From the NCBI GenBank assembly GCA_036172245.1, contig JAYWIR010000012.1, positions 1-64,000 of the forward strand: a DNA stretch of 64,000 nucleotides. Reading direction: 5' to 3'. The notes under the pieces were generated by a model, which ran no database searches, had not been told where the DNA came from, and worked only from the letters and a program-made list of their open reading frames with translations. Below are positions 1-55,719 of this stretch, piece by piece. Each line of letters begins with the position of its first letter. Position 1 is the first letter of the stretch. A program made the translations under genes and the position numbers. This DNA is from Raillietiella orientalis (lineage: Eukaryota).

Positions 1-2439
<2,439 letters not shown>

Positions 2440-8500: not shown

Positions 8501-9724
8501 GCCCTCTTGAGGACTGCCCTTTGGGGCACAGCGAGGTCGCGAGTGTGATGGAAAGACTTGTGCGCTCCACGCAGGCATGGTGGCTGGGGCCTCCTTACGT
8601 TGGAGCGCATCCAACTTCAAACAAGAATTCGAAAGTTAGCCCTTGCGGCTAGCTTATGGATGACGCCATTGTGCGATCCGGCACGGATCCTCGCCAGAAG
8701 AGCGACCGGCTGCGAAGGATTGTCCTCGATCCTCGTGGCCTACCAGCGCAGCCTCTCCAACTGTGGTCCCGATTTGCGCCAGATGGTCGCCCTGATCAGG
8801 GAGAATACCTGGATCTCCTGCATCCCCGCGAACTGCACTGCCTGGCTTCAGGAGTCAGCTTCCGCGTGGGCTAAGATCAACGGAACGAGCGAGGCGGAAT
8901 ACAACTGCCTACGACGAGGACCGACGCTCGACAGCCGCTGCAGGAGATTATCAACACGCCCCGGAAGTTTCTGTGGGATTCCTTCAGCTTCCTTGTCCCC
9001 GTTCTGTCCTCCCTAAAAAACACTAGGAGGAGCTCTATTTCTGCACTGGGGACTGTTAAGGAGAGCACGCCTGTCTCACTGGACACTGGGGAATGTGGAT
9101 GCCCGCTGTGTTGAGTGCGGAGAAAGAGAAACCTTCCCGCATCTCATCCTCGAGTGTGTCGCCCTGGATGGACTCTGAAGTTGAATCGCCCCAATCCTCC
9201 ATCTTCCAGTAGGCGACCCTAAGGAAATTTACCGTCGCCTCTTTCTGCGTGACGGCCTGCGCCCCGCTGCGTCTCTAGCAGTCCTCTGCTGCGTGCGCGG
9301 CATTGTGCAAAGGTGGCACGCCAGAAGAAGAGGCCCAAGATGCAGGGACGCCATCCACTGGACGACGATCTCTTTAGAGACGGCCACAAGGTGGCGTCTA
9401 CCTTTCACAATAAAAACCGAACTTGACTGCATCCTCAACAGGATGCGGAGGACCGACCCAGGCGCCCAGTGATCCCTTTCCTGCCCCCCTTCTCCCCATA
9501 TAACTGTTTCCCTCCCCGTAATCGCTCTTTTTGTTTGTTGTCGTTCTAGTTTTCCCTTCGCATGCGCCTCGGGAATGGATCTAAGCGGTCTATGCACCGT
9601 CAACCGACACGTCGAGCAAGGTAGAAGAACCCAGTGTTTTCCCACGGAAAACATCTTTTTAAAGACTTTATTATCTAATTTTCGTAAAAAATTAGAATAA
9701 TAACTGCCCCGGCATATCCGGGTG
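5553..9724 (+). mobile_element. E3: Tx1-like element (ORF1 tail, near-complete decayed ORF2 from ATG 6098, 3' UTR); apparent inter-subfamily chimera
   Basis: APE WNVNN, QEID, NVYAP, GDFN; RT KAPGEDGLPAEFY, LLPKG, QGDSVSP, YADD; near-identical to E1 from ~8085 onward with a ~230 bp deletion at ~9030; terminal hairpin 9708-9722. Confidence 0.95.
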
Positions 9725-10950
9725 CCAAATGGCAAACGGCGGACGCAATTGTTGTGCGCTCCGTGGATGGGAAGTTTTACTTTTCTGGTGTTTCGTATGT
9801 GTTTCGCGGCCGTTGACAGGAAGAAATCCCTGTGAACGCCGCAGTTTCAGGTGAGGGAGGCGAAAAGACCGCGTCTCCCAAGCCAAAGGAGGTGGGATCA
9901 CGCCCCACCACTACTTCCGAACCCGCCACTACGGCGAGGGCCTGGAGCGCGGTGGCAGCGGCGGAAACGCCCGATGTCGCCGCCGAAATGCAATCCTACA
10001 TCCAGGAAGGCTACAATCCGGCCCTCCTCTACAAGGTAAGAAATTTATATTCCCTGTTAAGGCCGCGAAAGTTCGGCAATACCATCACAAAGATGGGCAT
10101 TGCCGACCATGAAATTCTTTGCCTGTCATTACGGAGCGGAGGGCAGTTGGCGGAGCTCATCTGCAAGGACGCAGCTCTTACCCACAAGATGATCTGCACG
10201 CCCGTACAATTTGAGGGCAGGAATTTACTCCCACACACGGTGGACCACTCCATTGTGGTCCACCTAACAGGGACAACAGTGCGGATGGATGAGAACGCCA
10301 TCCGCGCTGAACTGCAAAAATTCGCAAGCGTTTTCGCGATATGGAGAAAGCCCAACACCTTCGGAGTGAATGGTGCATTTAGTGGGCGAGAAGGCGCGCG
10401 CGTGACGCTTCCAGAAAGCGTACAGCTTTCCCACAAGCTCCAAATTGGCGATGAGTTCGTCGACATTTGGTTTGTGGGGAAACCTAAATTTTGTGGAAAC
10501 TGTAAGTCGTTCGGGCATTTGAAAAAGCGGTGCCCGGACGCAGTATGCCCAACGTGCGGCGCGAAGGTTACCACCAAAGTGGTGTGCCCGATGAACGTCG
10601 CTCCAACGCCGGAACTTCCGCAAAAGAAGGAAGGGAAGGCAAAAATAGTGATAAACCCCACAAAAGGGGATCAGCCGTCGGCTCCGACAAAAGTCGCGCA
10701 GCAGGAAAGGGACTCGGTACAGGAGCTCCCGGAAAAGAATGCCGACGAGGAAGGCTGGCAGCTGGTCACCCATAAAGTAAAAATCGTTAAAAAAACCGCG
10801 CCCGCACCGGCGAAAGTGGTGAAGGGCAATGGAAAGGTCGCGCCACGCCCAACCATAAAATCGTGCAGCGTGGCCATCAAACGCGTGCCGGCGATCGATA
10901 CTCGCTCCGCTGACGGATCCATGCGGTGTCACGTCACGCCAGCTGTTCAA
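9725..10950 (+). mobile_element. E4: 5' fragment of a second-subfamily Tx1-like element (5' UTR + ORF1)
   Basis: ARAWSAVAAA, EGYNPALLYKV, CGNCKSFGHLKKRC; homologous to E11; CGGACGCA variant motif at 9740-9747; the ORF 9832-11154 reads into antisense E5 after ~10950. Confidence 0.9.
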
Positions 10951-13900
10951 CCCGCCGCCGCGCCAACGCCGGCGCTTGGCCTTGGCCTTGTACTCCGCAA
11001 GGTACCGGACGTCCGGGCATCGGGAGAATTGGGGGGCCTGCAGAAACTCTCTGCTGTTGGCCACGCCTTCCCCGAAGCCAAGGGGAAGCAGGCGCAAGGG
11101 GAACCGGCTGCAGAACTCACAGACCGATCTTTTCAGATCGTCCCATTCCACTAGCTCTAGATCGGCCAATGTCCGGAGATGCTGGCGGAGGTGCTCCGGA
11201 GCCACCAGATTCCTCAACCAGTCGGCCGGCAACCTCCAGCCGTGCGTCGGAGGGCCCTTGCCAGGCGGAAGTAGCTCAAACTCCAGCCTGTAGTGGTCGA
11301 AAAGCTCGGACGGCACGGGACCTCTTCGACCCACCCGACAATGCAGGTGATCGTCGAGGAACACATGGTCCGGCAAAGCACGCATCCCGGGATCGTCGGC
11401 CAGCAAATTCGAGGTGTGCACGCACGCGCACACCTCGTTCACCAGCCGTTTCTCCCGGCGGCGGTGAGACTCCTCCGATAACGCGTGGACGTTGAAGATC
11501 CGGCTACGAGGTGAGCCACGTCGGGGACGGAGTTGCTGAGCCAGCGGTCGCGCAGTCTCTCGAAAAACTCCTGTTTCTCGGTGTGACGCGCAGAGCCGCA
11601 CGGCGCGTACACGTTCGTGACGACAAGGTTGATCGATTCGGACCACTTGAGAACAAGTTGGCCCACACGACCTTCCTCGTCGAAACAAACGCTCCGCACC
11701 GCTCCCGCCACCCTGCCCCGGACAAGGAATGCGACTCCGCAGGTATTCTGGGAGCCTGACCTCCAATGGAGCGTCCCGCCTGCGCGAACTTGCAGATCGG
11801 CCGCTTGCTGCTCGGAGAGTGCGTGAATCTCCTGCAGCAGGGCCAGATCGAAGTCGCGCAAGACGTTGGCAACCAATCGCCTCTTGTCGTTGTCCTGCAG
11901 CCCGTTGACGTTCCAACAGGCCACTCGGACGCGACGGGAAGAAGCGAGACCGCGCATTGCTGCTACGGACATGGAGGTGCGTTCCTCGCCCCGTCCGGCG
12001 AGGCATCAGCCGGGAGCACGGCGGATGAGGTAGCGCATGCGCTTCCTGTCCCCGCCGCGCCGCTCGCGGCCGGCTCGGTGGAGTCGAGGACCATTGCCTC
12101 GGGCTCCGCGGAACATCGGGAACCGTTCCCGGCATCAGGCTCTTGCCTGGCATGTTTTGGCTTGTGCGCAGCCCTGGCCTTGACCGAGGCTTGGCGAGCC
12201 TTAGCGCTGCCCTCGGACTCCACCTCGGAGTCCGAATTGCGCGCGCGCGGCGGGCGTTTTGCCTGCCGCTTTTTTTCCTGGCAGCCAGGAGCTGGTCCAG
12301 CACTCTGAGAGGGTGCCTTCGTCGCCGATCCCCCTTTCGGGGTCACGGCTTCGGCAGCTCCCTTCTCGCCGCGGGTGTTTGCGGCGGCGCGCGCGGCGGC
12401 AGCAGCGGCTTTATCTTGCGCCTTCCTTGGCGCGCGGGGCTGCCTCTTCACTCCGCCTACCTTTTTGATCGGGAAGTGGGAAGGATCGCGCGGTTTGCGC
12501 TCATTCTTCCTTCCCCCAAGAAAGGTCCAGCCATCCTCGCCGCCTTCCGGTTTGCCTCGGTTAGGCGCGAGGGCTTCCAGGGTCCCTCGCATCCTTTCCA
12601 AGGCCTCGCATACGGCGGTGGAGGTCAGTGTCTCCTTCGCCACGTCTGCCTTTTGCACCTCCTTACCGGAATGTGCGGACAGAGTGGCGGGATTCTCGGA
12701 GGTCGCCCGAGGCTTTTAGACCTTTGCTGACGTTCGGCCCTCCGTGGCCGGCTTACCTGTCGCGGGCAAAGGAGCGCGCGACCCCTTTTTCGACGCTCCG
12801 GTGGACTTCCCGGGCGTGCCACCGCTATTTCGCTCCGGAGCGAGAACGGGCGGAAGCGGTGGTGGTTTTGCAGCCTGCCCGATGTTATCGGCGGGATGGG
12901 TCGCTTGGGGCTTCACTGAAAAAGCCTGGAGAAGCTTCTTGTCCTTTCGCGCGGGTTTTTGTGGAGCATTGCCCTGATAATCGCCCGCGCAAGCGGACTG
13001 TTGACTTCGCTGCGAATCCTCGTTCGCGCCGGATTTCTTACCCAACGACGGGGCGGATGGAGTCGGCGCGGACGGCGATGTTGCGGGGAGGTTTCTGGCC
13101 CTCCTCTTACGTTTTAGCTCGGGGCACTCGTTAATCGAGTGGCCGAGCCGCTTACGGTATCGGCAACTGCGTGTTGGGCACTTCCGCGGACGGCGGCCCT
13201 GCTTCCCGCAGTTGCCGCAAGCGGGGGTTTGCTAGGCAAACCGGAGATGGACGACGACGTCATCGAGGACGATCTGCGAAGCCATGAGCCTCCGGTCGTC
13301 CATGGTGACGCGCGCCGTCAGGAGTCCGCAAGAGAGGCGCGCGACTTTATCGATCGCATTCGCGCGCCTCCACATCGCGTGCCCTGTGGCGAACGCCTCG
13401 AGTGCAACAATGATGTCGCGGTCCGTTATTCTCGGCCGAATGCCCGAGAGCTGGACCACGAACGATTGGTCCAGGGCCGAGGGGACGACCTCCTTACCCC
13501 TGATTTTCAGGGGGGTTCGTAGTAGGCGCTGGACGAGGGCTGCATCCTTGCAGTGCACCTCCCAATGGCCTACCGCGCTCACTGGCATAAGCGCCAGGAG
13601 ATCGTCCTTTCGGACCTCTACGCGTTCCAGCTCTCTCCAGAGCTGGTAGCCCGTCCCATCTTGGTACGCGGCACTCATCTTGTAGGCCAGAGGGGGGTTG
13701 TAACCGCTGGCGGCGTACGCCCGCAGCTCTGCCTCGTCGGGTGGGGCTCCGTGATCCGCCGCTGCCTTAGCAACGGCGGCAAAACTTCTCGCTGGAAACG
13801 AGGGACGATCGGTGGAGGCTTCCACTCCTCCCGAAGAAGGTCCTGCGATGCAGGGGGATTCCTCCACCTCCATTTCTGTGGGCACTGGCTTCATTTTCAA

Positions 13901-17254: not shown

Positions 17255-20200
17255 AACCGTCGTCGTGCGCGCAATGCAATGAACCTCGAAGCCAGGTCAC
17301 CAACTCGGTAAGAGAGGAGCGATCTCCCGACTGACAAGAAGCTGAGAACGCTGCCTCCTTTTAAAGGCGTGGCGAAAGCAGCGCCCCTAGAGGCGGTAGC
17401 GAAAACTCCGGAGGTTTCCGAGAGGAAAGTCGCGGAAGCGTCCGAAAATCATGACGGCGAATGGAAGGTTGTAAAGAGGAGAAAAGAAAAATCTCCCAAC
17501 AAGGCTTCGCAACTTCCATCCGTTAGCTCCTTGAAGGCAAAGAACAGCCGCGTGACCAAGAAAACACGCGCGGAGGGTTCTTCTGCCTTGGAAAAAACCA
17601 GAGCCGTCAACGCGTGCAAGTCCGCCTCTATGACCGCAGAGAAGACGATTCCGGTGCGATCGGACGGATGCAAGCGCACGCCGATCGTGCGAGCATCAGA
17701 CTCCGCAAAGGAGTCCGATAGCGCCGCTGAACGACGCGTTACTCGCGCGGGAGCAAGCGCCCGCAGGGCTGAAGCCCTGAGGCGTGACACACTCGCCGCG
17801 GAACGGCGAGTGCTCACCCCGGAACCCACAGGTTCTGCACCCGGGGGGGAGCACTCGATTACGTGCAGCACAGTTGAGGCCGGCGGCGACCGCGCCCTCC
17901 AGCCCGTCGTGTTCCTTACTGCCCGCTCGCCGGGTGAGGCGAGCACCACGGCCTCGCTTTCCCAGCCGTGATGTGGGCAATCCCGTCTTCTCGTCGTGTT
18001 GCCGTGACGTCTTGGAACGTCAACGGACTCCAACACGAGGAGAAGAGGCGACTAGTGGCTCACGCTCTGCGCGCCTTCGACTTGACGCTCCTGCAGGAGA
18101 TTCACAGGATATCCGAAGAGCAGGTAGCCGAAATCGAACGGCGCGCGGGCGGAACGCTACTTTGTAGGTGCGGCGTTGCACGTACGTGCGGCGTCGCTTT
18201 CCTCATGCGAGGAACTTTGGCGGGAGCGGTGCGCGGCGTTCGCTTCGACACGGAAGGCCGAGTGGGACAACTTGTACTCAAGTGTGCCGACTCGATCGAC
18301 CTTGTCTTAACGAACGTGTACGCAGCGAGCGGTGCTGGACGATGGGCCGAAAACATTGAGTTCTTCGGTACCGTTCAGAGCCAGTGGCTCACTCGTTCTC
18401 ACCCTACTGTGGCGCATCTGATTGCGGGGGACTTTAACGTCCACCTGCTGACCGAGAATAGCGCACACAAAATGGAAAAGTTGCTAGTGGAAGAGATGTA
18501 CGCGTCCGTGCACGCGTGCAACTTGTTCGCTAACGACCCTGTTATGCCGACTTCACCGGACCATGTATTCCCCGATGAACACTTGCTCTCTCGAGTGGGT
18601 CGGAAAGGTCCCATGCCGTCCGTGCTTTCAGACCACAACAAGCTCGAGTTCGAGTTGTTCCCGCCAGGCAAGAGGCCTCCAAACTGTGTTTGGAGGATGC
18701 CGGAAGACTGGTTAAGTCACCCGGAGGCGGCGGAGCATCTCCTTCAGTACCTCCGGACCTTCGTCATCCGCGAACTCGCGGACTGGCATCATTTAAAGAG
18801 ATCAGTCCGCGAGTTCTGCGAACGGTTTCCCTTGAACCGCCTTCCGCGAGGCTTTGGAGAAGGGGTCGCCAACAGCAGGACTTTCCTGCAGGCGCGCACC
18901 TTTTTCAGACGCGCTGTCAGCCGGCTTGCGGAATACAAGGCGAGAGCCGAGCGCCAGGTCTGGCCGTCTGGATTATTTTGCTTGCTCGACGAAAAAAGGC
19001 CTGGAGTGCTCGACTCCAGTCGGTACTCGCCGCCTCGTAAGGCGTTATTACTCCTCGCTATGCGCGGAAGCGCCTACGGAAAATACCTTTTCGGAGATAC
19101 TTCTGTCCCAGGATGCTCCCTTTGTTAGCATGTCTCGACGAGTCCTTCACGGCAAAGGAAATTTCCTCGGCTATCGCGGGACTCAGGAGACGAAAAGGAC
19201 CAGGTGAGGACGGGCTACCCGCGGAGTTCTATCAGAGCTTCTCGGCGGAACTCGTCGCTCTGGTGCTTAGCCTCCTCGCTGATGAGGGACTAGGGGAATG
19301 TCCCCAATTCCTTCCGCTCAGAGAGGGTGCGTCTCCTACTGAAAGGTGGAGACCCACGCCATCTCAACAACTGGCGTCCGATCACCCTGGTGAACTCGGA
19401 CGTCAAGTTGTTCTCTAAGCTGTGGGTTTCGCGGCTAGGGGGAATCGCGTAGTCCTTGGTAAGCCTTAGGCTTACAGACTTAGGCTGTTCTCGGGTGGTC
19501 CATGGACGCGAACCTCCTGTTTGCCCGCACCTCGATGCAGCTGCAGGAGCGCGTAGCGCAGCAAAGCCGATCCGTGTCCAAGGCTGCTGCCAAAGGCACA
19601 CGGTATCGATAGAAGCGGCAGGAGGGTACGCCTGGTGCCTTCGCGGTCTCAGTCGACCTGCAAAAGGCGTTCGATTGCTTGAACCAAGGGCTCTTATTAG
19701 AGCTCTGGAACGCCTGGGTCTCCCGGCGCATCTCCTGAAGTACTTGCGCACAAGCTGGAGCCACGCGCTAACCTGCATTTCTTTTAGCGGCTGCCACGTG
19801 TGCGGTATTCCCGTGCGCAGGGGCATCAGACAGAATGACAGCTTAAGCCCGTTGCTCTTCAGCATCTTCTTCGAGTTGGTGCTGAGGGCGTACAGGCTGA
19901 CGCTGGAATACCTGCCTAGCTCCTGCCCGGATACGCATGCCGTGGCTGCCTATGCAGACGACCTGCTTCTTTTGCTCCCCATGTCCACCCCGGCGGCCAG
20001 TGTCGAAGATTTCTTTGAACTGATTCGTCGGGGAGCGGGCGTGAGTGTGAACCGGAAGAAGAGCGCGGTCGTACCTGTAGGAGCGTCGTGGGAGGGGCAG
20101 TCCGACTGGATCCGCCTGGGGATCCCCACGGCAGGGTATTTCAAGTACCTTGGAGTTCCGCTGGGCGACCTCGGTTCTGCCGAGGCGTGGTCGGACTGCC

Positions 20201-21858
20201 TTCAAAAGGCAGAGTTGGCAGCCAGCCCGTTCACTAACGGCAAGTTCACCTTGCCGGAACGGGCAACTATTTGGAACACCTTCGTGGCCCCCCTCCTTCG
20301 ACCCCTGTATTTTGTCTTGGACCCCCCCTATGCGGCGAAACAGCGGGCTAAACGCCTGCTCAGGAACGCACTCTGGGGTCCGGCGCAATCCAGGATCCGC
20401 CTGAAAGACCTCCCTGGTCCACGTCGGGATGCTGGGCTTGGAATCCTGACGATGGAGAGAATCGGACTGCAAATGCAGTTCCGGATGCTCGCACTGTGTG
20501 CTAAGCTATGGACTTCCCCCCTGTGTGTGCCCGCGCGCATCCTCCTAAGGAGGTGTGCAGGCAGTGAAGGACTTCTTTCCTTGGTGCCTGGCATGCGTCA
20601 CAGGAAAGAGGGATTTGGCTATCCTCTGAGGCAAATCGCCTCCCTATTGGATTTCCTGCTGCCCGATGAACTACAATGCTTGGCGGCAGGAATCCATAGA
20701 TTCTTGGGCTGTATCCTTAGAAATGAGCCGTGAAGATCTCCGCCCCCTGTGTCGATTTCAACCTTGGTCCCTCCAAGATGTCATGCAGGACGAGGTGAAG
20801 TTTTCCGCCCTGGACGCCACGCCCCTCGCCGAAGCACTCTCTGCACTCGAGGATCGAGATGACAGTAGCCAGCCGGCGAAGTGAGAGTTCTGCACCATTG
20901 CAGGAAGAACAAAACCAGTTGGCGAATAGGCCACGAGCGATCTTGCGGATGCCGCCACTCCTCGTGCAACACCAAAGGCATTACTTTGGTGGGGAGAAGC
21001 ACTAGGTGTTGCCTCCGAGGAACTTACAATCTCTCCTTGGTGTTTCGACGGTTCGGTGTTTCCCCTTGCATGGAAGCAAGGCGTCTTGCTCTTCTTGCAC
21101 TGGGGCTTGCGCTACAACGAGCGGCGCCACCTAGTTTCCGGTGGGGTGGCTTCTCCCTACTGTGCCCGGTGCGGAGCGACGGAGACGTTCCCGCACCTTG
21201 TTATGGACTGCGGTGCCCTGCAGGAACTCTGGCGGAGGCTAGCAGCAGCTCTCCCGCCTCCGGGGGACACCGCTCGAGAAGTGCTGCGACGGTTCTTCCA
21301 GCCACAAGGACTTTCGATGGCTGCGACGATTTCCACTGTTGGTTGCATCCGTGCCATCCTCACGGTCCGAGACTTGCTGGAGAACACTGGACAGCAATGT
21401 TGTGTCACCAGGAAGGCAGGCGACATCGTCAGGTCGGCAGCTGGGTGGCGACACTTATGGGAAGACATAGCGGAGCAGCTAACCGGTATCCATCGCCGGA
21501 TGAGCAACGGCTTAGAACGACGAACACGGTGATCTGCCCTCATTTTACTTTGAATTGATTTTTTTCTTTTTTTCTTTTTTTGTCGCGTTCTTTTGCCTAT
21601 ACGCTCCGCAAGGGTTTTGGTGCTAAAACTTTTGAGTTTCTCGGTGACTGCGGAGCGTCACCAAAGTTCCCTGGCCCACTCCTCCAGTTTACCATTTTCT
21701 TTTTTTTTTTTTTGGACACCCCTCAGTCGTCCATGTTCTTCCGTCTTCCTGGCCTGCGTGCCAGTGGTGAAGCTCCGCTGCATGTTTTCATAGTCGTGGG
21801 CTGGAAACAACTGTTTCTAGCTCGTCTATATCAATAAACGTCCCGGCGTGACCGGGTG
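17255..21858 (+). mobile_element. E8: Tx1-like element, ORF1 3' half + full-span decayed ORF2 (17971-21532) + 3' UTR
   Basis: APE WNVNG, QEIH, NVYA, GDFN, DH, SDH; RT GPGEDGLPAEFY, GIRQNDSLSP, YADD, KYLG; CARCGATETFPHLVMDC; AATAAA 21833-21838 + hairpin 21842-21856. Confidence 0.95.
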
Positions 21859-21862
21859 AAAA

Positions 21863-24564
21863 ATTACAACGTTCGCTTTCATGAGAGACGGACGTGATTT
21901 CGTGTGACTGCGTTGATCCGCTATTTGGTTGCGTTTGTGCGTCCCACTGCATATCCCTAAGGATGAGCAGGGAACAACACAACGTGGAAGACCTAGAGCC
22001 TGTGGTTCAGGAACTTCCAGCAGCTGGAGCGATTCCGACAACCTGTGCGAGCCCCGCGCCATCGGCGAGGAGCTTCGCGGATGTGGCCGCTTCTGCGTCT
22101 GTGCAAGGATGCCTCCCCGACCAAGCGGAGATGCAGGCATATGTAGCCCATGGCCACAAACTTGCTACAATGTAAGTGGGTTAGGCAAGGCTGGGTACGA
22201 GTTCGCGGACGAACTTTTCCGTGTTGGAGTGCGATAGGAGGACCTCATAGCATTCATGCCTGTTCCAGCATTGGGCTATGTGAAGGTCCGATGCAAGCAG
22301 GCTGAGCTTGTGCAGAGGCTCCTCCGCACTCTTTTGTCCATTTGCGGGAAAAAAGTTCTTCCTTCCGCGATGGACGAGTCTTTTGTCGTTTTTCTCTCGG
22401 ACGTAGAGCCGGAGATCAACGACAAAGTTGATGGACGCGTTGGCGAATTTCGCCACCGTTCATGCGGTGTGGAGGAAGGGGAGTTTTTACAAAAATTCCC
22501 CTCCGTCCACACAGGATTTGCTGCGGTTTGGATTACCGTTCCTAACCGCCGCACGCTGCCTGCCACGCTACAGATCAACGGCACGGTCGTTCACTTGTGG
22601 TTCGTTGGCAAAATGCGCGCGTGCGAGCAATGCGGCAAAGGGCAAAGAATGCCCTTCCCCGAAGTGCCGCTATTGCAAGGAGTCCGGGCATCAAATCAGG
22701 CAGTGCCCGGGCATTGCAAAAATGAAGGAGGCCGCTAGACTTCGGCGCGTTAAAGAGAGCGCCGAAAAGAAAGCAGCAGTCTGAAAAAAGCGAGGAGACG
22801 CGCGAATGCCTGCCAAAAACCGCACAGGAACGTGGCGTCTCAAGAGGCTTCATCTGCCTCAAAGCCCCGAAAGGGAAATCGGCCGGCAGGGAAGCCTATT
22901 AAAAAAAAACGCGAAAGCTCCGTGCGTGCCGTCACTGATCCCATAGCGGAAAAAGGAGTTACCGCCCCAGGAATGGGGTCAGTGAAGCCGTTTACACCGG
23001 GCGACAGCGCGATAGGGGGACACGCGAATCGCACTTTCGCGACAACGGTCTCATCAAGCTCCTTGTCCATTGCGGGGGCTTTGATATGAAACCCCAGAAA
23101 GGAAGCTGGGATTCTGGCGAGAAAAGCCGGAAAAAGCGGTGGCGAGTCGTTAGAAAACTCGCCGTAACCAGCCGCATCTTCCCCAACGCGGCAGTCGACG
23201 AGCAATCACCCGAATGCCCAAGGGGCTCTGCCATTGCCGCCATTTCAGGGAGCAGCGAAAGCTGCGCCCCAGGCGGTTGGAAAGGAAAACCCAAAGCCAT
23301 TCCTCACGAAAGCCGTAGTTATGGAGCACTCCTTGGTGCGTTCCGGCCCGCCTTCAAGCCAGCCGTGTCTCCAGGACGCAAGGACTCGCGTCTTAGCTTC
23401 TGTGCTCCGGTCGGAAGATACGAAGATGCGGACTTCTCCTGGGACGCATGGCCACCCTGGCAAAGGAGAACGGGTGGATGGCCTGCAGCCCCGCCAACTC
23501 CAGCGCATGGCTGGAAGAAACAGTTGGAACGTGGGCAAAGTTGAAAGACATCAGTGGAGAATCCTGCAACCGCCTGCGCACCGGCATCTACACCCTCTGC
23601 ACGCTGCGGAACATGATCGTGTGTCCCGCCAGAAGCACTTCGGCGGAGACGACCCCACTGGCCACTGAGCTGCCTTTCCTACGAAGGGCGCTTCAAAACA
23701 GCCTTAAGCCGAGATGGCAAGTCTCCTGCAGGATAGCGGCCACGGAGAAGGATCTAAGCGGGTAGACCATGAGGGAACTGGCAGACGCCGCAACCCCAAG
23801 CGTTCACCCGCATGGAATACGGAGATGGGGCGAGCTGTTTGGCATCCCGGCGGATGACCTAGAGTGGCCCCCGTTGTTCATAGACTCATCCACCCTCCCC
23901 CTCAAGTGGCAGGAAACGGCGCTTTGTTGTTGCACTGGGGTCTTCTCTGCAACGCGCGCCGCCACCACTGGACGTTGTGGAACATGGAACAGAACTGTGC
24001 AGTGTGCGAGGAGAAGGAATCCCTCCCCCATCTGTTAGTGAACTGCGCTGCCCTCCAGATTCTGTGGGAACGGCCCTTAGGATACCGTTTGGCGGCAACT
24101 CCAGAAAAGTTTACAGTCTTCTCTTCGTGGGGGACGCCCTGAGAGCAGCTGCGGCCCTAGCAGCACTTTGCTGCATCCGTGGTATTGTGGAGGCCTGGAG
24201 TGAAGCAGAAGATGAAGATTGCAACGTAACGGACGTCGTCCCATATGCTGTTCGCTTCCTGCAGAGAGCTACCGGATGGCCCCAGCTGAGTAGATTCGAG
24301 GACCTCGAGGGCATCCTGCAAAGGATGAACCTTCCTCCCAGTGGGCAGTGATCCCTTCCCCTCCCTCCAAAAATTTTTTTTTCGGTTATTGTTTTATTTT
24401 TCTTTTTGTTTTTCTCCCTTCCCCTCCCACTGCCGAGGAGAGTCACGCTGGTCTGCGTCCCGGCGTCCCGTAGACGGCGAAGTGTTGGCCGTTAGTGGGA
24501 ACTTGTACCACGTATTATGCTGACCTTTGGAAAAGTTTGAATAAAGTCCCGGCGTACCCGGGTG
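21863..24564 (+). mobile_element. E9: internally deleted or chimeric Tx1-like element, 5' UTR + ORF1 (ATG 21963) joined at ~23315 to the post-RT end of ORF2 + 3' UTR
   Basis: RSFADVAA, CRYCKESGHQIRQC; from ~23320 LWSTPWCVPARL...CAVCEEKESLPHLLVNC; no APE or RT motifs between; AATAAA 24540-24545 + hairpin 24548-24562. Confidence 0.88.
21889..21896 (+). promoter_or_regulatory. CGGACGTG DPE-like motif of E9
   Basis: Identical octamer about 70 nt upstream of the ORF1 ATG. Confidence 0.6.
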
Positions 24565-24599: not shown

Positions 24600-25400
24600 C
24601 CAAAAAACAGCGTTCACCAAGGAAAAGCAGTGCTCTCTGCCCGTTCCAACGTAAGAAGTTCGTCTTGTGAGAGAGCGCCTTCAACTGAAACACCTTCGTT
24701 GTCCCCTTCACCATCCCGTCTTTTCTGTTCGTGAGTTACCCCAATCAGCCAAGCTGCGGACGCATCGCCTGTTGAAGAACGTTCTGCGGGGGCTACTAGG
24801 GTGCACGATACTCCTCGAAGACGTGGCGGCACCGCGGCGGGATGCCGGTTTGGATATCCTGACGCTCGACACGATCATCCCGCAAATGCAGTTCCTAAAG
24901 TGCAAGACTTTGGCGCCAAGCAATGCAAGACTCCGTAGTGTGTTCCAGCGCGCCTGCTACTGCAGTGCTGTACTGACAGCGATGGAGTGCCTTCGTTGCT
25001 GTTGCACTCCCAACGCACCAGGGCAGAATTCTGCTTTCCGCTTAGGCGGCTCACTTCGATCCTAGAAACTCATTCGTGGATCTGCTGCCTAACGAACTTT
25101 CACGCGTTGAAGCAGGAGACCTTATCGCTCTAAGCAACTAATCAAGAGCTTCCGCCTCCAGGAACTCGTTGCGCTCATGCTTCCTCGTGCTGGGCGGTGG
25201 TAGATATGTTGCAGGACCAGGGAAAGTGAACTCGTCTGGCCGCTACGTCCCACGCAGCAGTGTGCCCCAAGGGCAAGCGATGATAGTTGTCCGCCGGCGG
25301 GATGGAAGTATCCTGCAGAACTGCTGGAGAAACAAGATCGTTGAGAAGCTGGAAGACGAGAGAATGGCAGACGCTTCCACTCTTCGAATGTTTTGATAAG
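24600..25400 (+). mobile_element. F10: more decayed post-RT ORF2 fragment of the Tx1-like family
   Basis: RLLKNVLRG...LEDVAAPRRDAGLDILTL matches LKDLAAPRRDAGLGILTL of E13; many stops. Confidence 0.8.
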
Positions 25401-26372: not shown

Positions 26373-29300
26373 GTGAGTCCTCGTGCTCCTCCACCGCAAG
26401 TGTGCTCGAGGTTTTGACGATTTGCATGGAACACGCATTCACAAACAGAAAGTAAAATTAGGCTTTCTGGCAGCCGAGTTCGGTCAGCGCAATACATGCC
26501 AAGCACTAGCAGTAGTTTCAGCAAAGAATCGCAACCTTAGTGCACGACGCGCGGGTAGTCCCTGTCCAAGTGGCGAAGATCCGTTCACCTGCCAATCCAG
26601 AGTGCACATGCATAACTTTGCACAAAACTGAGCAAACACACTGAAATCGAGAGGACACCACAGTGCTCGTCTGCAAATGAAAGTGCTTCTCAAATGCGAA
26701 AAATTCGAACCAGCCATCGGACGGAAAATTGTTCGACGACGAAATGGATGTCGTCATGGCAACAAGATGACTCTTCCTCTGCAAACACACCAGGTGCCAT
26801 ATGGTGCGAACGGCGCTAGACGAACTTTCGCGAAGCTCTCTCGCGCCGTTGTTGGCGTACCGTAAGCTGGCGTCCGCCAACTGCTGAGCAACATATGTGC
26901 CAGCATTTCGGAATCGCGAACGCTCACGCGGCGAAGCAGATCTTCACTGGCAACTGAGACACGAGAGAAAAAGGTTCAGCAACGAATCTGCCAAATAAAA
27001 ACAAAATCAACTCTATGAATGGCGAAATGCATAGAGAGAGTAAATATGCCTGAGCAAAATTAGTTCCCTAAAAATTCTTCGGACGATAAGGATGCATAAT
27101 TACCCTTCGATGATTAAACACTTTCGAACTCAATATATGCCATGAACTATTTAAACTAGGTAGCTAAAGGTAACAAAAACTGGAGAATATCATGGGAAAG
27201 AAAAAAATTAGAACGAATAAAACTTAACGCGAAAAGTAAGGATCAAATGAGAGACTCATTAAGATGTCAAGGAACATACAAAAAGCAAATAGATACCATC
27301 GATACCTCAAAAAAAATAAAAAAAATAGTCAGCTTTCTCGTAAGCAACTGCCAAACACAATGTCACATTATCATGTCTCAGTACACTTGCTATAATCTGC
27401 CGTTCTTGTGTTGGAGAGTACCAAACTGCACAACCCCAAACTGAGCCAACACAGATGAAGGATGGTCCTGGTAAACCAGCATAATAGCAAAACGGCTTCA
27501 CCAACACCAAACGACTTCAACTCCGAAAATATCCCGAAGTTACTAGCAAAACCAAACTCCATCAAAGTACCTTCGCGACAATTCACAAAACTATGACTCA
27601 GTCTCACTCTGATATAGCACAATACAACATTCAAGCCAACAAGCGCTGATTCTCGGCATTCAGTTTGGACATCGTCAGAATGGCACAGTAAAATGAGTCG
27701 ACGAGTCGTTTCCGTAATCCGCGGACCACAGCACTTAGACAGAAATATGAAAATAGAGACAACTGAGTCACACAGGGAACACTGTTCGAAAGAAAGTCCA
27801 AGAGCTCAATACCAGAGTACAACCACGTGCTAAAAACGGGAATATTTCGCACAGATGTGAAAATGTAGAAACCATGTTTGGGATCCTTAAAAGACCCTCA
27901 ATTCCGCCGTAACAAACACAAATTAAGAGCAACGACTCAAACGCGACGCAGCGCATCTACACAATGAATAATGCACAAATGTCATCGATCTCGCAAGAGA
28001 ACACAAACAAACGGTGCACCATGGATTCAATGACCAAATTGAAAATGGAATCCTATATGATTCCAAATAACACAGGTCATCGAAAATTCCACATGCCACG
28101 CATCCTGGTCTCCGTAAACCAGGATCCACACCTCAGCTGAGTCAAGCATCACAAAAAGATACAATGCCTTAAGACAAACAGGCATATCCAGATCACGTTG
28201 TCAGAAGAATAATGGAATATCCAACTGATTAATGAAAGAACCATTACCATATCGAACCAGAATTCACCCACTGAACAAAGCAAAGTGACATTTCGGTAAG
28301 GCATTCTTCATGCCTATTAAAGACTGTAAGTTTCACTCGAACTAGTTCATTGTCTCTACATTCTAAGGATGACTCAACTGTTCCTATGTACAAATCTTTG
28401 CACATTTGAACCCTACTAGGCATCCACGCACAGATCAAGCAAAGAGTATGCTAGTACAGAACCAAGAACGCAGCCTGCGAAATCAAAAAGTAGACTAGGC
28501 CACTAAAATCACTTATAATATGTAGTTCAAACGCAGCCCACTTCATTATTTGAATGAATCGATACACTCTGTCCACCTCCGTAATTTACGTACACTGTAC
28601 ACATACACAAGAAAGTCTACTGCCAGCACCAACTCACAAGAATGCATACGACTTCGAAAAGTCCGAACAAATTTACTTTGTAAACGGCACCCGCAAGAGG
28701 CTCGAAATCTTGCTTGTGAGAAGCTGTGGAATGGATTTCCGCTTAAGTAAGCGAACTGTGGAAATAGGAACCGCAAACGATTAACATACTTATTTCCGAA
28801 TATTCAGGACGACGACGATAACAAGCAAACAGATGTAACAAAACAAACAATATTCCTAATTGCTGTCTGCCGCCATTGGTGAATTCTACCGTCACATAAT
28901 TTCCTGTAAGAAAACTTTCCGGCACCACTGCCTCAGTTGGCTACCTTGCACACAGTATGCAGAGCTGTCTATGAGGAAGACAACGTATACAGAGGAGTAG
29001 TGCACAGCAGCCGTTCCCAATACAGTTTGAAGGGTACTGCTTCGATTTCGAACTATCAATCGGAAATATCACAAAATCAAACATAAATTTCAAAACGCAG
29101 TTCGGCTGCATAATACTTTACTATGTGGCTACCTAGTAGCGCACAAGAAAACAGAGCTCACAACAACGGACGTCTCGACAGGAAAAAAAAATTCGGGATG
29201 GCTTTTATCTTGCAGGAAAACGTGCTCACAATAAACAGAAGTGTCTGCGCTCATTAACCACACTTCAATGACGTCCCACCCTATCAGGGTGCGTGTGGCT

Positions 29301-29477
29301 AGCTGTTGATCTAACGAAAAAAGCATCTGTTTTGAAATGTTTACTGTGCCGGTTTCAAAGGCAATCACAGTATACATAACAACAATCAGTACGCTTGCAA
29401 ATTGAGTGATTCTAAACTTAGATCTGGATGGTGTCAGGCACAACTCAAAATAAATTCAGAAGCAAAAGCTCGCAACG

Positions 29478-31301
29478 TTGAAAATTACAACAAATCTGGA
29501 AACTGATTTACATACACATGGGTTCATCAACGCACTTGCAGCTGAACTCCTCCGTAGGTATGAGCAAGCCGCGGAGAAGGTGCAAATTAGCAGGGAGATG
29601 ATCTGGGGGTCAATGTGTCCGACACAGTTAGGCACCTTGCACACCCTCTTGATCAGGTGCAGGACATTGGAGGCACCAGACACGACCATCGGGCAGGAAA
29701 AATGGGATTCGCTCGAAAGGTCGGAGACAAGAAGACGCCCACCAATGACAGCTCCCATGGGAGTTCTACAGGCTTGGTTCTCTGCGGTAGCCGATAGGGG
29801 AACTGGCACATCGGGAAGTGTGCTCACGGAAAGGTATCTCCGAGCGATTGGGGGGATCCCAGACCTGTTGAGATACTCATTGGATGCCAGTCTTCCCCAT
29901 AGGAAGCAGAAAAAGCTTGTAGAGTCTGGCTGTGAGGAGATTCTCTGGTACGCCGTGGGCTATGACCACCGCCACAGACACGGGCGGGTCATTGCGGCGG
30001 AGAACACAGCAGAGATAATAGAACAAACCGAAAACATGACAAGGGCACCCAACGTCTTAAACCCGAGGCTGCCAACTCAGATTTGACAGTATCGTAGCCA
30101 AATAGCCGCGCTCTATGCGGCCCTTTATCAAGGGGCAGGCGTGGAGGTGGCGGATTGGCGGGAGCTTGGGTTAAAAGCTTCCCTCTACGACGACCTGAGA
30201 GAACATCGGTTCAACCAGCGAACTGGGGTTGAGTAGGCCTTTGCTGAAGCTGAAGATTGGAGGTGTGTCTACCTGCCCATCAGGTCCTTCGATGAGTGGG
30301 GGTTCAGGATAGTGACCATCTCCGCACACTACCTGAACTTATGTCTGATGAACAGGAGAGGACTGATCCCGGTCGTTTCAGGTAGAGCAGAGGAAGAGTG
30401 GGACCTTAGAAATGAGAATACCGGGATGGTTGTCCTGGAACACTTAACAGCAGAAGAGCCAGTTGCATGGGCTCTATGGTTGTTGCTGCATTTGCAGTAT
30501 CCCCTCCTACAGTGTGCAGAGATGTACAACGTACTGTTAGGAGACCAGACGGAATACAGGGACTTGTTCCTGCGCAATGCTGGCCTCATCGACTTCCACA
30601 ATGAAATGCGTAATATCGTGGTGGTCACACCCTCTGCAGCACAACGGCAGATCGAGTTAGCCGGAATAGCGCTCGAGGTGTTGACCATAACAACCATGGA
30701 AAACTGGATCCCAGCAACTGTGGTGGAAGCGGACACGATTGTGGAAGCCTGTCTGTGCCAAATTATGAGCTACCCACTTTCTCTGAAGGGAGTGCTCATA
30801 AGGTACTTAGGAGCCCGGGTACCGGGAGGCCTCAACTGGGAGGAGGTGGAGATGCTGACCTCGGTCTTGACATCAAAGTATCCCCCACAGGTTGAGGTCT
30901 TCACAAGGGCGGCAGGAAACGTATCCAGCATGGTCGGGCAGGGCCCGCCCCCCAATATCTTAAGAAAGACGTACAAAATAGAGGAGCATGCTGGAAGAAG
31001 CATGAGGGACTACGGCCACCAGGGGGCGGTAGGCTGCTTCGATCATGTCCCCCTCGGGAGAGGAGACGCCCGGAGAAACCCGGCAGTTTCGTTCGGCAGG
31101 TGGACGAAATTTGCCGAGCTGGCCGTTTTCGTAGCGGCGTACACTTGCAAGGTGTATAACGCCGAATCTCTGACAGGGATAGCCAATGCCCTACAAGAGA
31201 GAGGACTCGGCCGGCTGGCGAAAGCAGGTTACCTCGTTGCTGACTGCAGTGCGATCAAAGCAATAATGAGGGATAAAACTTCGTCCAGATTTGTTACATG
31301 A
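29478..31301 (+). pseudogene. Candidate endogenous viral element: toti-like dsRNA virus capsid-like ORF, ~600 codons with two in-frame stops
   Basis: ORFs 29478-30086 and 30312-31301 share one frame, bridged by only TGA (30084) and TAG (30234); intronless; GC visibly above flanks; no TE motifs; WALWLLLHLQYP region recalls arthropod toti-like capsids (from memory, not searched). Confidence 0.5.
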
Positions 31302-34300
31302 CTGCAGTCGAATAAGATCATTCACACAGCATGTTTCCTACATAGACTGCAATATGTAGGGAATCACTGCACAAAGAATCAAACGTTCGCTGTATGAAAC
31401 CCCGGGTTCATCTGCACATTCAAGCTTCATCCCTCTACCTCAAAATGACCATGTTTACAGTTATTTACATGTTTACAGTTTATTCTTTTCTCTGTATATC
31501 TTCTCATCTCACAAGATAAATGTGAATGTTTGAAATCAAGTCATTTAAAACAGATGTCAATCTGTTCCAACATATGTCACCTTTATGCTTGCAAAGAAAG
31601 AGAAGTGCAAAGGATGACCCTGGTGCCAGTCTGATAATTTCATCCACGCCATCATGGAATTGGATCAATTCCATGGCAAATTCTGTTTACTCTTTGGTAA
31701 ATTTTCCTACTGTAAATCTGAACGCATTGCTAGATACCTCACACAGAAACAATCTTGGTTTCCAGCATGTTTTACATTACAGTCGCTGATTCATCTGTCA
31801 AACATTTCCCCTTCACAAAATGTTTTGCTCACATTCTCTACTTCCATCCATTAATTGCAAGCAGATGTTCGCACAACAATCTAAGGGCAAATCTTTCAAC
31901 ACACCCAGTTGCACACTCATTCCAACTACCCATTTCGCTAACTCTGATGAACATTTTGTAAACTTTTTTGCCATCCTGGAGCTTCTCAAACTGCCTTGTG
32001 CATGGCGAAAGGTGATAAGACTTCATGGATATGGTTTGAATTTCAAGCCTGAAACTAAAATGACCATCTCACTATTGTCCCCATATGTTTACAATGAAAG
32101 ACTGGAATTGCTACTTTTTAAGAAAGCAAACTTTTCTAATCGGAAATGCTTTGGCATCCTCATCATACAATACGTTTTATGCATCTTTTGCAAAACTGCA
32201 ATTTTCAGAATGCAAAATAGTCAGTTTTCTTAATTACATAGCAAAAAAGGCAATACACTTCAGAATGAGAAATGAATTAATACAGCTGTTTCACAAAATA
32301 AGTTCAATCATTATACCAATATTTTCTTGTCCTTCACTACACCAATTGCAAGTCAATGCTCTACATGCCTTCCCTGACCAAAACATTATTCTAATTAGTG
32401 TCTGGTTGTATTTTGGTTCATTTGCTTTCATACTATTTCATGAAATGAAATCTAATTCAAGGCTACTGAACCAAGTTCACAAGCATTTCAAACATAAATT
32501 TGTTCAGATTCATCATGCAGCAAGAAGCACCTATACTGAGGAAGATCCTTCAGTTTTTATGAAGCCTGATCAAAGGATTTGGCTGTCAAACTCATGTTTT
32601 TTTCCATAAAAGACTTTCATTCTACTTCTGATCTAAGAAATAAGAACAGATCCGTTCACAAAATATCATATTTACAAATTTCATTTCCCTGACAGTTGGC
32701 TTGACCATTTGAAATCTCGTAATGTACCCACATAATATTCACTTCTCAAAATGGAAAAGCACTTTTCGAGTTTGAACATCAACCTTTCGTGGCAACTTTA
32801 CCTACTAAAGGCCCCCAGATACCACATGAGAAACATATTTGCATAAAATGAGTACATGCCAGGAAGACATGGTGAAAACTATGGGATGGCTCCACTACAC
32901 TTGCCAATAAAGTCTTGAGACAAATTCCATGATCAGAGAAACAAAGTTCAAATGCCTAGCAATACGATGCACATTTTCTAAGGCAATCTCACAGAAAAGC
33001 ATACAGAAGCATCTGATGGAAACCTCAAATGTTCAAAAAAAAAATCAAAGTTTGTATAAAATCTTGTATCATAGCATCATGTCATGATAGAAACATTTTT
33101 GCAAATCAATGTACACATTAAGATTTCTAGTCAGCACAAAGTTAGCAAACAAAACAACTTAACATTTATAATGAATCTAAGACGGTATCCCAATCGATAA
33201 ACTCAAAGACTTGAGATAGTTCATAATTGAAAAGCTACATTCCATTTTGTTGTCATTACTAATCAGCAATACTGGTCAAAAGCACATACTGGTACAGCTT
33301 CCAACAATTTAATGCAGGCATTATTCATCACTGTCATCGTGAATCATAATTGACCTGTTAACAGATTCCAAACCACTTTAATCGGGAAAACATCATGTGT
33401 GACAACATGCAGTTGTTTCCTAAACAAGCAAGTTCCATTAAGAATTCAGATATATGTTTTTCGGACATGGATTTTATATCTTTGCGATATTGATTTGGAA
33501 ACTCCTGCATTTCATAAGAATAGGCTCAAACTGAAATATGGTTTCAGACATACATGCGCTTGGATCTACTTTGCTAGATAAAGTATTTTCAATCTTAGCT
33601 GCTCATCAGGAACTTCAAACCATGTTTAGCACCCTACGCCTACACAGAGTGGGTTTCTCAACTAGCATGTAAATAATAAACAAATCATAGGGTCAATAAC
33701 TTGGCTTGAAGTCCGGAAATGGTTCCAGTTCATTTCAGTTACGCTTCAGCCTTATAATCTCATAAGCTGTTCTTGCGACTATCAGCTCCATTATCAAGGC
33801 ACATCTGAACCACTTGATCCAAGTCAACCCATCCATATTGCAATCTGATTGCAAAGAACACAGTGACCAACACAACTAAGTTAACCGACGCGACCGGGTT
33901 TCCCGGAGTGGAAAAACATTCTGGCTTCGAAAGGCAAGCATTCTCCACAGTCATGCACACACCTCATATTTGCCTGATTATGAAGAACCATAGATGGAAG
34001 AAGTTTCCACGAGGCAGCTGGCGCTTCGGCGCAGAAACAGGTCGTCTTCATGAAACACTGGATTGCAGCAAAGGAAAGGGCATAGCAGTCTTCGATCTCT
34101 TTCATCCTTGTTACGATGCACTGGGGGCTCATTGCACAGCTGCCTACGTGTTTTACCACACAAAGCAAACGTTGACTACACTTTGGCGGAAAGGCAACCT
34201 GACCACGTGATCCCCTCAAGCCACAACGATCGCGACCCCTACTGAATTCCGCGTTCGGTTTTTAGCACTTCCGCAAAATTGAATACCACCTGAAAGAACG

Positions 34301-34547
34301 CCTCGTCTCACGAATCTGCAGCCAGAGTTACCAACTCATCTTCCGATTCCACGATGCGTTCTCAATTTTTTGTTTGCAGTGCAAGTGTGGATTCATACAA
34401 AGGGGTTATCTGGTTTGCACACTCTGTATCAAAGCAATCCATGGAAGGCACACTGTAAATACTTTGCGGAGACTTTAAAAAAAATTCTTCCATTTGAAAA
34501 ATTCAAAAAAGTCTGACGGATACCTCAGGAATGTTGGCAACAAATGG

Positions 34548-35393
34548 AATATTCGGAAAGTTTCATTTCCTTTGAAATAAAACAGGTACCCGTCCCAATT
34601 GCCATGCAACCAAATTTCTACTTTCTGGATTTTTACACTCATCCCTGCCATTCTCATTCCATTTCTTCTTTTCTTTCTTCGTTTTCACCTTCAGTCGTCA
34701 ACATTCCTTCTTATCCTCGGAAGTCCGGCATTTCTGCATTCACCTAACACATACTCATCATACGTATAAAAAATGTACATTCGAGAAAAAATATACACAC
34801 ACTTATATCCATATCTATATCAGTAAACATGCAATCAGCATGCGTGTTAATGATCGTTCGGGCTTTCGAACCAACTCCGAAGGGGTCCTACAAGCAATGG
34901 AGGGGGAACTCAGGGATGCGAATAGGCGACCTCTCTTCTTGTGACGAGTCCAGTCGGCTGTGGCGGTGCGAGGAGCACCTTCGGCGCTGTACTAACGGGA
35001 GGGACGTCCTTTCAACAGACTTCGTAGGAGAGCCCTTGCAGGTTGCGGCAGCGCCTTGCCCGGCACGCCCCCATTTCCCAATCACCATCCCCACCTTACT
35101 CAGCGGAGGGCGGCTGCTCTCTGCCGATGCGCTCCCCCTCCTAGCTAGGCTCTCCTCACTACGACCCCGCGAACGGTGGACATCGGAGGAGGGTCATTGG
35201 ATTCCCTTTTGATCCTTAGACAGATGGAGCCACTGAGACTTACGATTGGCATCACACACGAATCCCCACGCGAGTCTTCTCCAGTAGGTGACTCGGGCAA
35301 GGACTCTCTACAGAGGCAGACGGCCAATAGGAAGATCGCATTAGGGAACAGCGCCGCTTCCGCCTGCAACTATCCTCAAAGAAGCGCATCTTC
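34548..35393 (+). repeat. Dispersed ~0.85 kb repeat, copy 1 (abuts the 3' flank of the 5S gene)
   Basis: Colinear similarity to 54800-55719, e.g. tttgaaataaaacaggta...catccctgccattctcattcc...ggtggacatcggaggagggtcattggattccc...gaagcgcatcttc. Confidence 0.92.
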
Positions 35394-35416: not shown

Positions 35417-35535
35417 GGTCCACGGCACCCAGGGTTCCCAGGCGGTCGCCCATCCAAGTACTGATCGGGCCCGACGCTGCTTAACTTCGCCGATCGAACG
35501 AGAGACGGTGCTTTCAGCGTGGTGTGGCCGTGAAC
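35417..35535 (-). rRNA. 5S rRNA: 5S ribosomal RNA gene, solitary, 119 nt
   Basis: GTTCACGGCCACACCACGCTGAAAGCACCG...GAAGTTAAGCAG (box A)...AGTACTTGGATGGGCGACCGCCTGGGAA (box C)...GCCGTGGACC; helix I GTTCACGGC/GCCGTGGAC pairs; T5 terminator. Confidence 0.97.
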
Positions 35536-53744: not shown

Positions 53745-54311
53745 ATGAACAAAGCAAACATGAAGATGAAAGTCGCAAAACATCAGCAAGATATCAACGC
53801 CCTCGATGCAGCCTCAAGTCGCTACGATCCTGCGCACGCCAATGTACTGGCCGTGGGAGCTTCACTAATGATGAGTGACCTTCCCCCGGACACTCAGGAC
53901 GACCCCCTGCTGTTTGAAAACGAAGTCATACTAGTACCTCCTGACTACGTCACTAGACCGGGACATACAAGATGGACGTTCGGTGATTACGAAAACGTAC
54001 TAATCTGCCCCACACTGCGACCTGATTGAGACGCGGTGAAAACAGTGATCTGCCTACCAAGGAAGACGAAAAATGGAATACTGTGGAGTTTATTCCAGGG
54101 GACAGGAATTGTTTCCCAGTATAATCCAACGGTGATGACCACTCTCGCTCTCTTTATCACAACCAATGGGATTAGGAGAGCCAAGATGTGCATCCTACAA
54201 CGAAAAGCGTCGACATGGGACTTATTCAAAGGTCTTGTCATGAAAGAAACAGAGATCAGTAATTGTGGAAAGATACAGCCTGGACTTATTGTTACATCTT
54301 ATCGAAGATGA
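53745..54311 (+). pseudogene. Orphan ~188-codon ORF with one in-frame stop; speculative negative-strand RNA virus matrix-like EVE
   Basis: 53745-54029 and 54036-54311 are in the same frame; PPDY (PPxY) at 53937-53948; downstream TTAAAAAAAC at 54397-54406; no LINE motifs. Confidence 0.25.
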
Positions 54312-54799
54312 ACAAATACATACAGGAACAAACAACGATTTCATTGCCCCTACCCTATCCTGAAATTTCAAAAGACAGTGTGTTGAATGTGATGTGTTAA
54401 AAAAACAAAGAGTGAATCTGTACAGTAACGGGCTGTGAAATGCTTACCTAAATGTATGTTGATTGTTCTGTGATGTTGTTTCATAATAAATGCGCCGCAA
54501 CATTTGTAGGTTGGGGGACAATTGTGAAGATCGACGGAGGAAAGAGAGAGCGATGGAAGGGAGATGGTGATTGAGCGAAGTTGGGTGGGAGGAACTCCCG
54601 TGCGCTCCCGTGCGATGTCCTCTTATGGAGGGATCGTGGAAGCGTGCAAAGGCTGCCATCAAAAACGCAGCGTCGAATCACCGCCATCTTTGCACACTCA
54701 GTGAGCGTGAGATGGGAATTTACAGGTATTATTTTGTTAACAGAACTACGGCGGGCTGACTGAGTGAAATCCTCATTGACGTGCCAAAGCAGCGAACCG

Positions 54800-55719
54800 A
54801 ATATACGGAAAGTTTCATTCCCTTTGAAATAAAACAGGTATCCCTCCCAATCGCTATGCAGTAAAATTTCTACTTTCTGGATTTTTACACTCATCCCTGC
54901 CATTCTCATTCCATTTCTTCTTTTCTTTCTTCGTTGGCAGCTTCAGTCTTCGGAAATCCGGCATTTCTGCATTCACTTAACAAATACTCATTATACGTAT
55001 AAACAATGTACATTCGAGAAGAAATCTGCACACATTGAACCCATCTTGGCTGCGTACACATCAGCACACATTATGGATGATCGCAAAAAAATATTTCGTT
55101 CAACCAAATGCGGTCATTCATCTTCATGCGCTTGCTTATATCCATATCTATATCAGTAAACATGCAATCAGCATGCGTGTTAATGATCGTTCGTTAATGA
55201 TCGGACTTTCGAACCAACTCCGGAGGGGCCCTGTCAGCAATGGAGGAGGAACTCAGGGATGCGAATAGGCGACCTCTCTACTCGTGACGAGTCCAGTCGG
55301 CTGTGACGGTGCGAGGAGCACCTTCGGCGCTGCACTAACGGGAGGAACGTCCTTTGAACAGACTTTGGAGGGGAGCTCTTTCTGGTTGCGACAGCGCTTT
55401 GCCCGGCACACCCCCACCTTACTCAGCGGAGGGCGGCTGCTCTCTGTCGATGCTCTCCTCGTCGTAGTAGGGCCCTCTTCACTACCACCCCGAGGACGGT
55501 GGACATCGGAGGAGGGTCATTGGATTCCCTTTTGTTCCTTGGAAAGATGAAACCACTGCGACTTACGATTGGCATCACAGACGAATTCCCACGCGAGTCT
55601 TCTCCGGTAGGTGACTCCTGCACGATTCTCTACAGGAGAAGACACCCAATACGAAGGTGGCAATAGGGAGCAGCACCGCTTCCGCCTGCAGCTTACCTCA
55701 AAGAATGAAGCGCATCTTC
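54800..55719 (+). repeat. Dispersed repeat, copy 2 (no 5S gene attached; ~100 bp extra at ~55035-55133)
   Basis: Colinear with 34548-35393; similarity stops at gaagcgcatcttc. Confidence 0.92.

Follow-up and report, generated by a model that had tools for sequence, protein, structure and literature searches.

Toti-like endogenous viral elements (EVEs) are common in arthropods, where they have already been catalogued by the thousands. One survey found 593 of 1188 arthropod genomes to carry toti-like EVEs, 5686 in total, which come from either the capsid (CP) or the polymerase (RdRp) gene and are usually disrupted (PMC10636211). Toti-like EVEs also occur in ixodid ticks (PMC10675110), and capsid-derived TotiEVEs of the black soldier fly have been tabulated (PMC9231314). 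The element described here is one more of this kind. Like known toti-like EVEs, it is a chromosomal copy of part of a CP gene, whose frame is disrupted and in which no Pfam domain can be recognised. It shares with the TotiEVEs of the black soldier fly both the nearest viral clade and the gene of origin, the capsid (PMC9231314). Identity to exogenous viruses is similarly low, at 26-35% for the element and 28-39% for the fly TotiEVEs (PMC9231314). Unlike these, the element lies in a different host genome and at a different locus, and whereas the fly has the exogenous virus HiTV1, none was found for the element.

We consider the locus very probably to be a non-retroviral EVE, in which part of ORF1 from an arthropod-type toti-like dsRNA virus has been copied into DNA and become fixed in the host chromosome. 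The term 'arthropod' is used here on the strength of the viral clade to which the sequence relatives belong, and the attribution is a probable one.

The element was found in a window of 64 kb (the whole stretch of Raillietiella orientalis DNA that was analysed), which contains no N. It consists of a single reading frame, the parts of which are as follows, in window coordinates:

29451-29453, forward strand: in-frame TAA just 5' of the frame
29457-31298, forward strand: virus-derived frame, 614 codons long, interrupted by two in-frame stops but by no frameshift
29541-31235, forward strand: core with demonstrable homology to toti-like ORF1 (profile positions 529-1123 of 1463)
30084-30086, forward strand: first in-frame stop, TGA (codon 210, within an aligned block)
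30234-30236, forward strand: second in-frame stop, TAG (codon 260, within a strongly conserved block)
30237-31298, forward strand: longest uninterrupted piece, 354 codons
31299-31301, forward strand: closing stop of the frame, TGA

The original prediction had described a single frame of about 600 codons with two nonsense codons and no frameshift, a description that stands, as a profile of viral ORF1s aligns to this single frame of 614 codons in one unbroken domain (29541-31235). The coordinates it proposed, 29478-31301, are exact at the end but start 21 bases inside the frame. All of the peptides that it quoted (LLRRYEQ...MIWG, WALWLLLHLQYP, LNWEEV and VSFGRWT) are present in the frame translation. 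GC content had rightly been said to exceed that of the flanks, at 0.533 in the frame versus 0.417 and 0.356 in the 2-kb flanks upstream and downstream, respectively. Similarly, no clear start had been seen, and the head of the frame indeed carries no ATG, the first methionine being residue 48. The reported lack of transposon motifs within the frame was borne out by Pfam, in which the read-through protein matches no family at E <= 10. Over the same stretch, each of the other five frames contains between 13 and 42 stops, versus two in the frame of the element.

The frame is not a complete open capsid coding sequence, since it is interrupted by two in-frame stops and its match stops short at position 1123 of the 1463-position profile. 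The two stops and the incomplete match thus point to a fragment derived from the capsid family rather than a functional member of it.

Relatives of the element were sought with an exhaustive HMMER (phmmer) scan of 1.84 billion representative proteins, using the read-through protein as query. Of the 99 relatives recovered at E <= 1e-3, 59 also pass E <= 1e-10 and 15 pass E <= 1e-30. The top-scoring match (E 4.4e-52, 30% identity) aligns query residues 158-584 with residues 620-1050 of a 1449-aa protein, and the full-length relatives are mostly 1340-1735 aa long. Capsids of insect toti-like viruses are the best relatives in both sequence (E to 4e-52) and predicted fold (TMq about 0.7), with identities of 26-31%. 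No Pfam domain was detected in the 28 top phmmer relatives scanned, which are therefore not polymerases. One relative, P0002, is named 'putative RdRp-complex [Corcyphos virus 2]' and lies on a 6910-nt contig; a literature search on 'Corcyphos virus' found nothing.

Other searches were less productive. A word-indexed protein search gave no match to either the single protein or a 16-row alignment, which reflects that index, because the full HMMER scan recovered its 99 relatives. Scanning with the single protein gave no pattern match among viral contigs and 38 among metagenome contigs, 0 of which were confirmed. Among PDB sequences, the sole phmmer match was CTR9 (E 1.7), which was judged to be chance.

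Within the window, the viral homology is confined to the element. A profile of 25 viral ORF1s matches it in one domain (29541-31235; 397 bits, E 5.5e-122) and gives nothing above noise elsewhere in the window in any frame. When the protein relatives were compared with the window by tblastn, all 94 HSPs fell inside 29550-31277.

In the standard toti-like layout, ORF1 encodes the structural proteins, while ORF2 encodes the polymerase and is reached by a -1 frameshift. The toti-type polymerase family is RdRP_4. An alignment of 25 full-length relatives was used to retrieve IMG/VR contigs, which yielded eight (L001-L008) of 6659-8021 nt. In all eight, an ORF1 of 1366-1715 aa precedes and overlaps an ORF2 that lies in the -1 frame; the ORF2 of L006 is split into pieces of 363 and 524 aa. 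Pfam RdRP_4 was matched by each of the three ORF2s scanned. ORF1 from all eight viral loci matches the window at 29790-31235, and the eight ORF2s (nine pieces, given the split in L006) show no match to the window at E <= 0.01. The homology of the element is thus to ORF1s whose genomes carry a toti-type polymerase as well.

These genomes bear on whether the element could instead be a transposon or cellular protein gene that merely resembles a viral capsid. Its position among transposon debris would suit such an origin, as would the weak RasGEF-like neighbours returned by a protein-atlas feature search of the 354-aa piece. These neighbours were rejected as noise (recognition 1846, below the meaningful level). 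We regard this explanation as extremely improbable, given that the frame holds no Pfam transposon domains, that the readable relatives (8/8) sit on contigs of 6.7-8.0 kb together with an ORF2, RdRP_4 in 3/3 scanned, and that fold matches are confined to dsRNA-virus capsids. The best matches, which the original prediction had allowed might prove to be cellular or transposon proteins, are instead viral ORF1s in sequence and dsRNA-virus capsids in fold.

The relatives also help to define which portion of the capsid is retained. An H..H..NGN motif is invariant in 25/25 ORF1s (residues 490-500 of P0002). It is also the only match of the ORF1 profile to PDB sequences, occurring twice in entry 9thi, the ORF1 of Omono River virus (OmRV). 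For OmRV and IMNV, PMC7968656 describes MCP N-termini made by cleavage after a conserved NKxMHxxNGN, with the OmRV MCP spanning Pro789 to residue 1685. Since the H..H..NGN of the relatives matches this motif, their MCP is expected to start just after it, at about profile position 493. In this respect, the relatives of the element share with OmRV and IMNV a cleavage motif placed before the MCP (PMC7968656). The invariance of the motif predicts a capsid N-terminus for the whole of this Pfam-less ORF1 clade.

The profile match in the window begins about 36 positions past the motif, and only an isolated 'HN' is seen upstream, at 29439-29444. The alignment puts frame residues 11-28 on the cleavage-motif columns, where they show no conservation, and the motif is not recognisable in the window. 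By the profile match, the start of the element is only a few tens of codons away from the capsid N-terminus, and roughly the first 60% of the MCP is covered. The upstream part of ORF1, the last ~340 profile positions of the capsid and the polymerase are missing from the window.

Support for a capsid also comes from the predicted fold. An AlphaFold2 model built from a 52-row alignment has a mean pLDDT of 81.3 and a pTM of 0.84, with pLDDT mostly >90 from residue 230 on and residues 71-122 disordered. A Foldseek comparison, which had been proposed along with the original prediction, gave nine PDB matches at E <= 1e-3, and all nine are dsRNA-virus capsids, of either Omono River virus (7d0k, 7d0l, 6s2c) or Giardiavirus (8r0f, 8r0g). 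The next PDB match has an E of 0.63. Alignment of the model with VIA-align gave the following:

OmRV 7d0k_A: Z 18.3, rmsd 4.6 Å over 419 residues, model residues 33-614 on chain residues 838-1348
OmRV 6s2c_B: Z 17.8
Giardiavirus capsid: Z 13.7
PcV capsid: Z 9.0
L-A capsid: Z 8.3

The predicted model has the capsid shell fold of toti-like viruses and Giardiavirus, and is like the OmRV/IMNV-type MCP (7d0k, 7d0l, 6s2c) in this regard. The aligned OmRV range starts ~50 residues past the MCP N-terminus and stops ~340 residues short of the MCP end, which agrees with the extent of the element derived from the profile. Unlike the OmRV MCP, the element is without the C-terminal third, including the region that forms the OmRV C-terminal arm. 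Identity between the two is only about 10%, and there is no sequence-level match beyond the cleavage motif of the relatives. In BFVD, a capsid protein (Solenopsis midden virus) and a coat protein (Leptopilina boulardi toti-like virus) ranked first among the named matches, with TMq about 0.7. Hubei toti-like viruses 18 and 19 and Sanxia water strider virus 20 came next, and TMq ranged from 0.58 to 0.72 overall. The arthropod toti-like capsid put forward in the original prediction is therefore the identity on which sequence (99 relatives), the genome context of the relatives (8/8) and fold (Foldseek, VIA-align and BFVD) agree.

The confident fold prediction (from residue 230 on, pLDDT is mostly >90) could also be read as a sign that the element is a co-opted host gene. 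The precedent is NlToEVE14 of the brown planthopper (PMC10636211). On this model, the 354-codon piece at 30237-31298, or a spliced form, would give rise to a truncated capsid-like host protein, and it is true that 1.8 kb have been kept without a frameshift and that a 354-codon piece is left open. However, both nonsense codons fall within conserved, well-aligned blocks, the head of the frame has no start codon, the ORF is not intact, and the 354-codon piece would begin in the middle of the shell fold. Co-option is thus very unlikely.

To place the element among its relatives, a maximum-likelihood tree was built from 48 capsid regions. In it, the element has a long branch of 1.51 changes per column, falls in no well-supported clade and is paired weakly (SH-aLRT 82) with a 588-aa protein, P0003. 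Because of the long branches, this placement is unsure. P0003, the nearest relative, begins near the predicted capsid N-terminus and is without the capsid C-terminal part, as is the element; it may itself represent a gene model of EVE origin and not a virus. Identity to the relatives peaks at 31% in the tree (over 390 columns) and at 35% in phmmer. Within the libraries searched, these values support the earlier suggestion that the element could record an unsampled virus. What is new here, as far as sequence comparison can tell, appears to be a donor lineage with no relative closer than about 31-35% among the 1.84 billion representative proteins.

The setting of the element is that of host DNA. 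The window also carries LINE endonuclease/RT pieces and a 5S rRNA gene match, and the virus-derived sequence is contiguous with this host-type chromosomal DNA. Pfam identified the following pieces, all of them decayed non-LTR retrotransposon remains:

1340-2191, forward strand: zf-RVT piece
7763-8548, forward strand: RVT_1 piece
17938-19128, forward strand: Exo_endo_phos piece
19453-20733, forward strand: RVT_1 piece
22407-22781, forward strand: zf-CCHC piece
23858-24139, forward strand: zf-RVT piece
58318-59157, forward strand: zf-CCHC piece
62082-63998, reverse strand: RVT_1 piece

In the first 24 kb, all Pfam-positive retrotransposon pieces share the orientation of the viral element, and the nearest recognisable retroelement piece is ~4-5 kb away from it. 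Some 4 kb from the element, another decayed LINE fragment shows up as a 67% identity between 24631-25386, in the upstream flank, and 62110-62874, in the RT-coding region close to the end of the window, on opposite strands. The flanks were scanned against Pfam with 60 stop-to-stop frames of at least 74 aa, out of 107 of at least 70 aa between 22 and 40 kb. Only the zf-CCHC (22407-22781) and zf-RVT (23858-24139) pieces and two sub-threshold chance matches were obtained. Among these 60 frames, those next to the element (at about 25.4-29.45 and 31.3-34.5 kb) gave no noteworthy Pfam match, and blastn found no further copies of these immediate flanks within the window. The surroundings had been described as a 'TE graveyard', which is apt for the LINE pieces at 1-24 kb and 58-64 kb, but is not borne out by the frames scanned in the immediate flanks.

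The 5S rRNA match (35417-35535, reverse strand; 102 bits, model positions 1-120 of 120) lies ~4 kb downstream of the element. It is found just beyond a block, 34547-35393, that is ~84% identical to 54799-55719; around this second block, at 54000-57000, Rfam gave no match at E <= 0.01. Elsewhere in the window, two long frames without a Pfam match overlap on opposite strands (10264-12342, reverse, 692 aa; 9817-11154, forward, 445 aa).

Public sequencing runs offer some view of the junctions. Parts of the stretch are present in one low-depth DNA run (share 0.20), as 7 short contigs, and no RNA run was listed. The junction that these contigs cover is as follows:

29371-29637, no strand assigned: 5' flank-to-element transition, covered by two overlapping DNA-run contigs (29371-29514 and 29487-29637) with zero differences, from a run that may be the source sample

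The contigs leave 29638-29995 and 30147-31571 uncovered, the 3' junction included. That gap, together with the sharp GC step at both ends of the element, is what might be expected of an assembly artefact in which an exogenous toti-like virus infecting the sequenced animal contributed cDNA or RNA that was joined to host DNA. A replicating virus, however, would not have two nonsense codons in its capsid, nor would it lack its polymerase and the other 40% of the capsid. The two DNA-run contigs across the 5' transition also speak against an artefact, although the run may not be independent. We judge it highly improbable that the element arose in this way.

In keeping with an EVE, the element is not replication-competent: the window holds no other part of ORF1 and no polymerase match, and the frame has its two nonsense codons. 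Truncation at both ends, nonsense codons in conserved blocks and a contig that bears LINE pieces and a 5S match together indicate that the sequence is endogenous and not a virus.

Non-retroviral EVEs are generally held to arise via host retroelement machinery that copies viral mRNA. By extension from EVEs in general, viral mRNA would here have been reverse-transcribed and inserted by the machinery of a host retroelement, and the inserted copy would now be decaying as non-coding DNA. The retroelement route is assumed, since neither a poly(A) tail nor a target-site duplication is visible at either end of the element and no retroelement adjoins it. The sole flanking direct repeat (20 nt, 85%, at 28934 and 29625) was judged to be chance, as was a 23-nt inverted pair near the element. 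The only A or T run of at least 8 near the element is an A9 at 29183-29191, and there are no tandem repeats in 24-38 kb.

The age of the insertion was approached through its decay. A stop would result from 246 of the 5508 single-base changes that the 612 sense codons allow, so the two stops observed correspond to a d of ~0.024 substitutions per site (Poisson range 0.003-0.088). The element is unusually little decayed. Two stops and no indel in 1.8 kb (~2% neutral divergence) imply that either the insertion is young or the frame was kept open for some time.

Compatible with an EVE origin is a further possibility, namely that the element is a working immune-memory locus, situated in a piRNA cluster and transcribed into antisense 24-30-nt piRNAs against its cognate virus. 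Such a role is established for arthropod EVEs in general. EVEs are concentrated in piRNA clusters (PMC10675110), and most planthopper toti-like EVEs yield 24-29-nt small RNAs (PMC10636211). Consistent with this, decayed LINE pieces are abundant in the window, and those with a Pfam match at 1-24 kb share the strand of the element. However, the TE density and strand bias of one 64-kb window are weak indicators, and we hold this role to be possible but doubtful. If the element has any role, it would most likely be as an antiviral piRNA template rather than as a protein, again by comparison with other arthropod EVEs.

In summary, the value of this finding is modest, as it adds a well-characterised capsid-derived toti-like EVE and opens no new question. 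It also supplies a confident, if predicted, model of the capsid shell for a clade that has no Pfam family. Somewhat speculatively, the element could be a recent insertion from a deep, unsampled insect-type toti-like lineage, perhaps one still circulating in the host. The near-intact 5' 60% of the capsid gene would then be the only record of that virus and a ready-made piRNA or interference template. The low level of decay makes the donor virus worth seeking in host transcriptomes.
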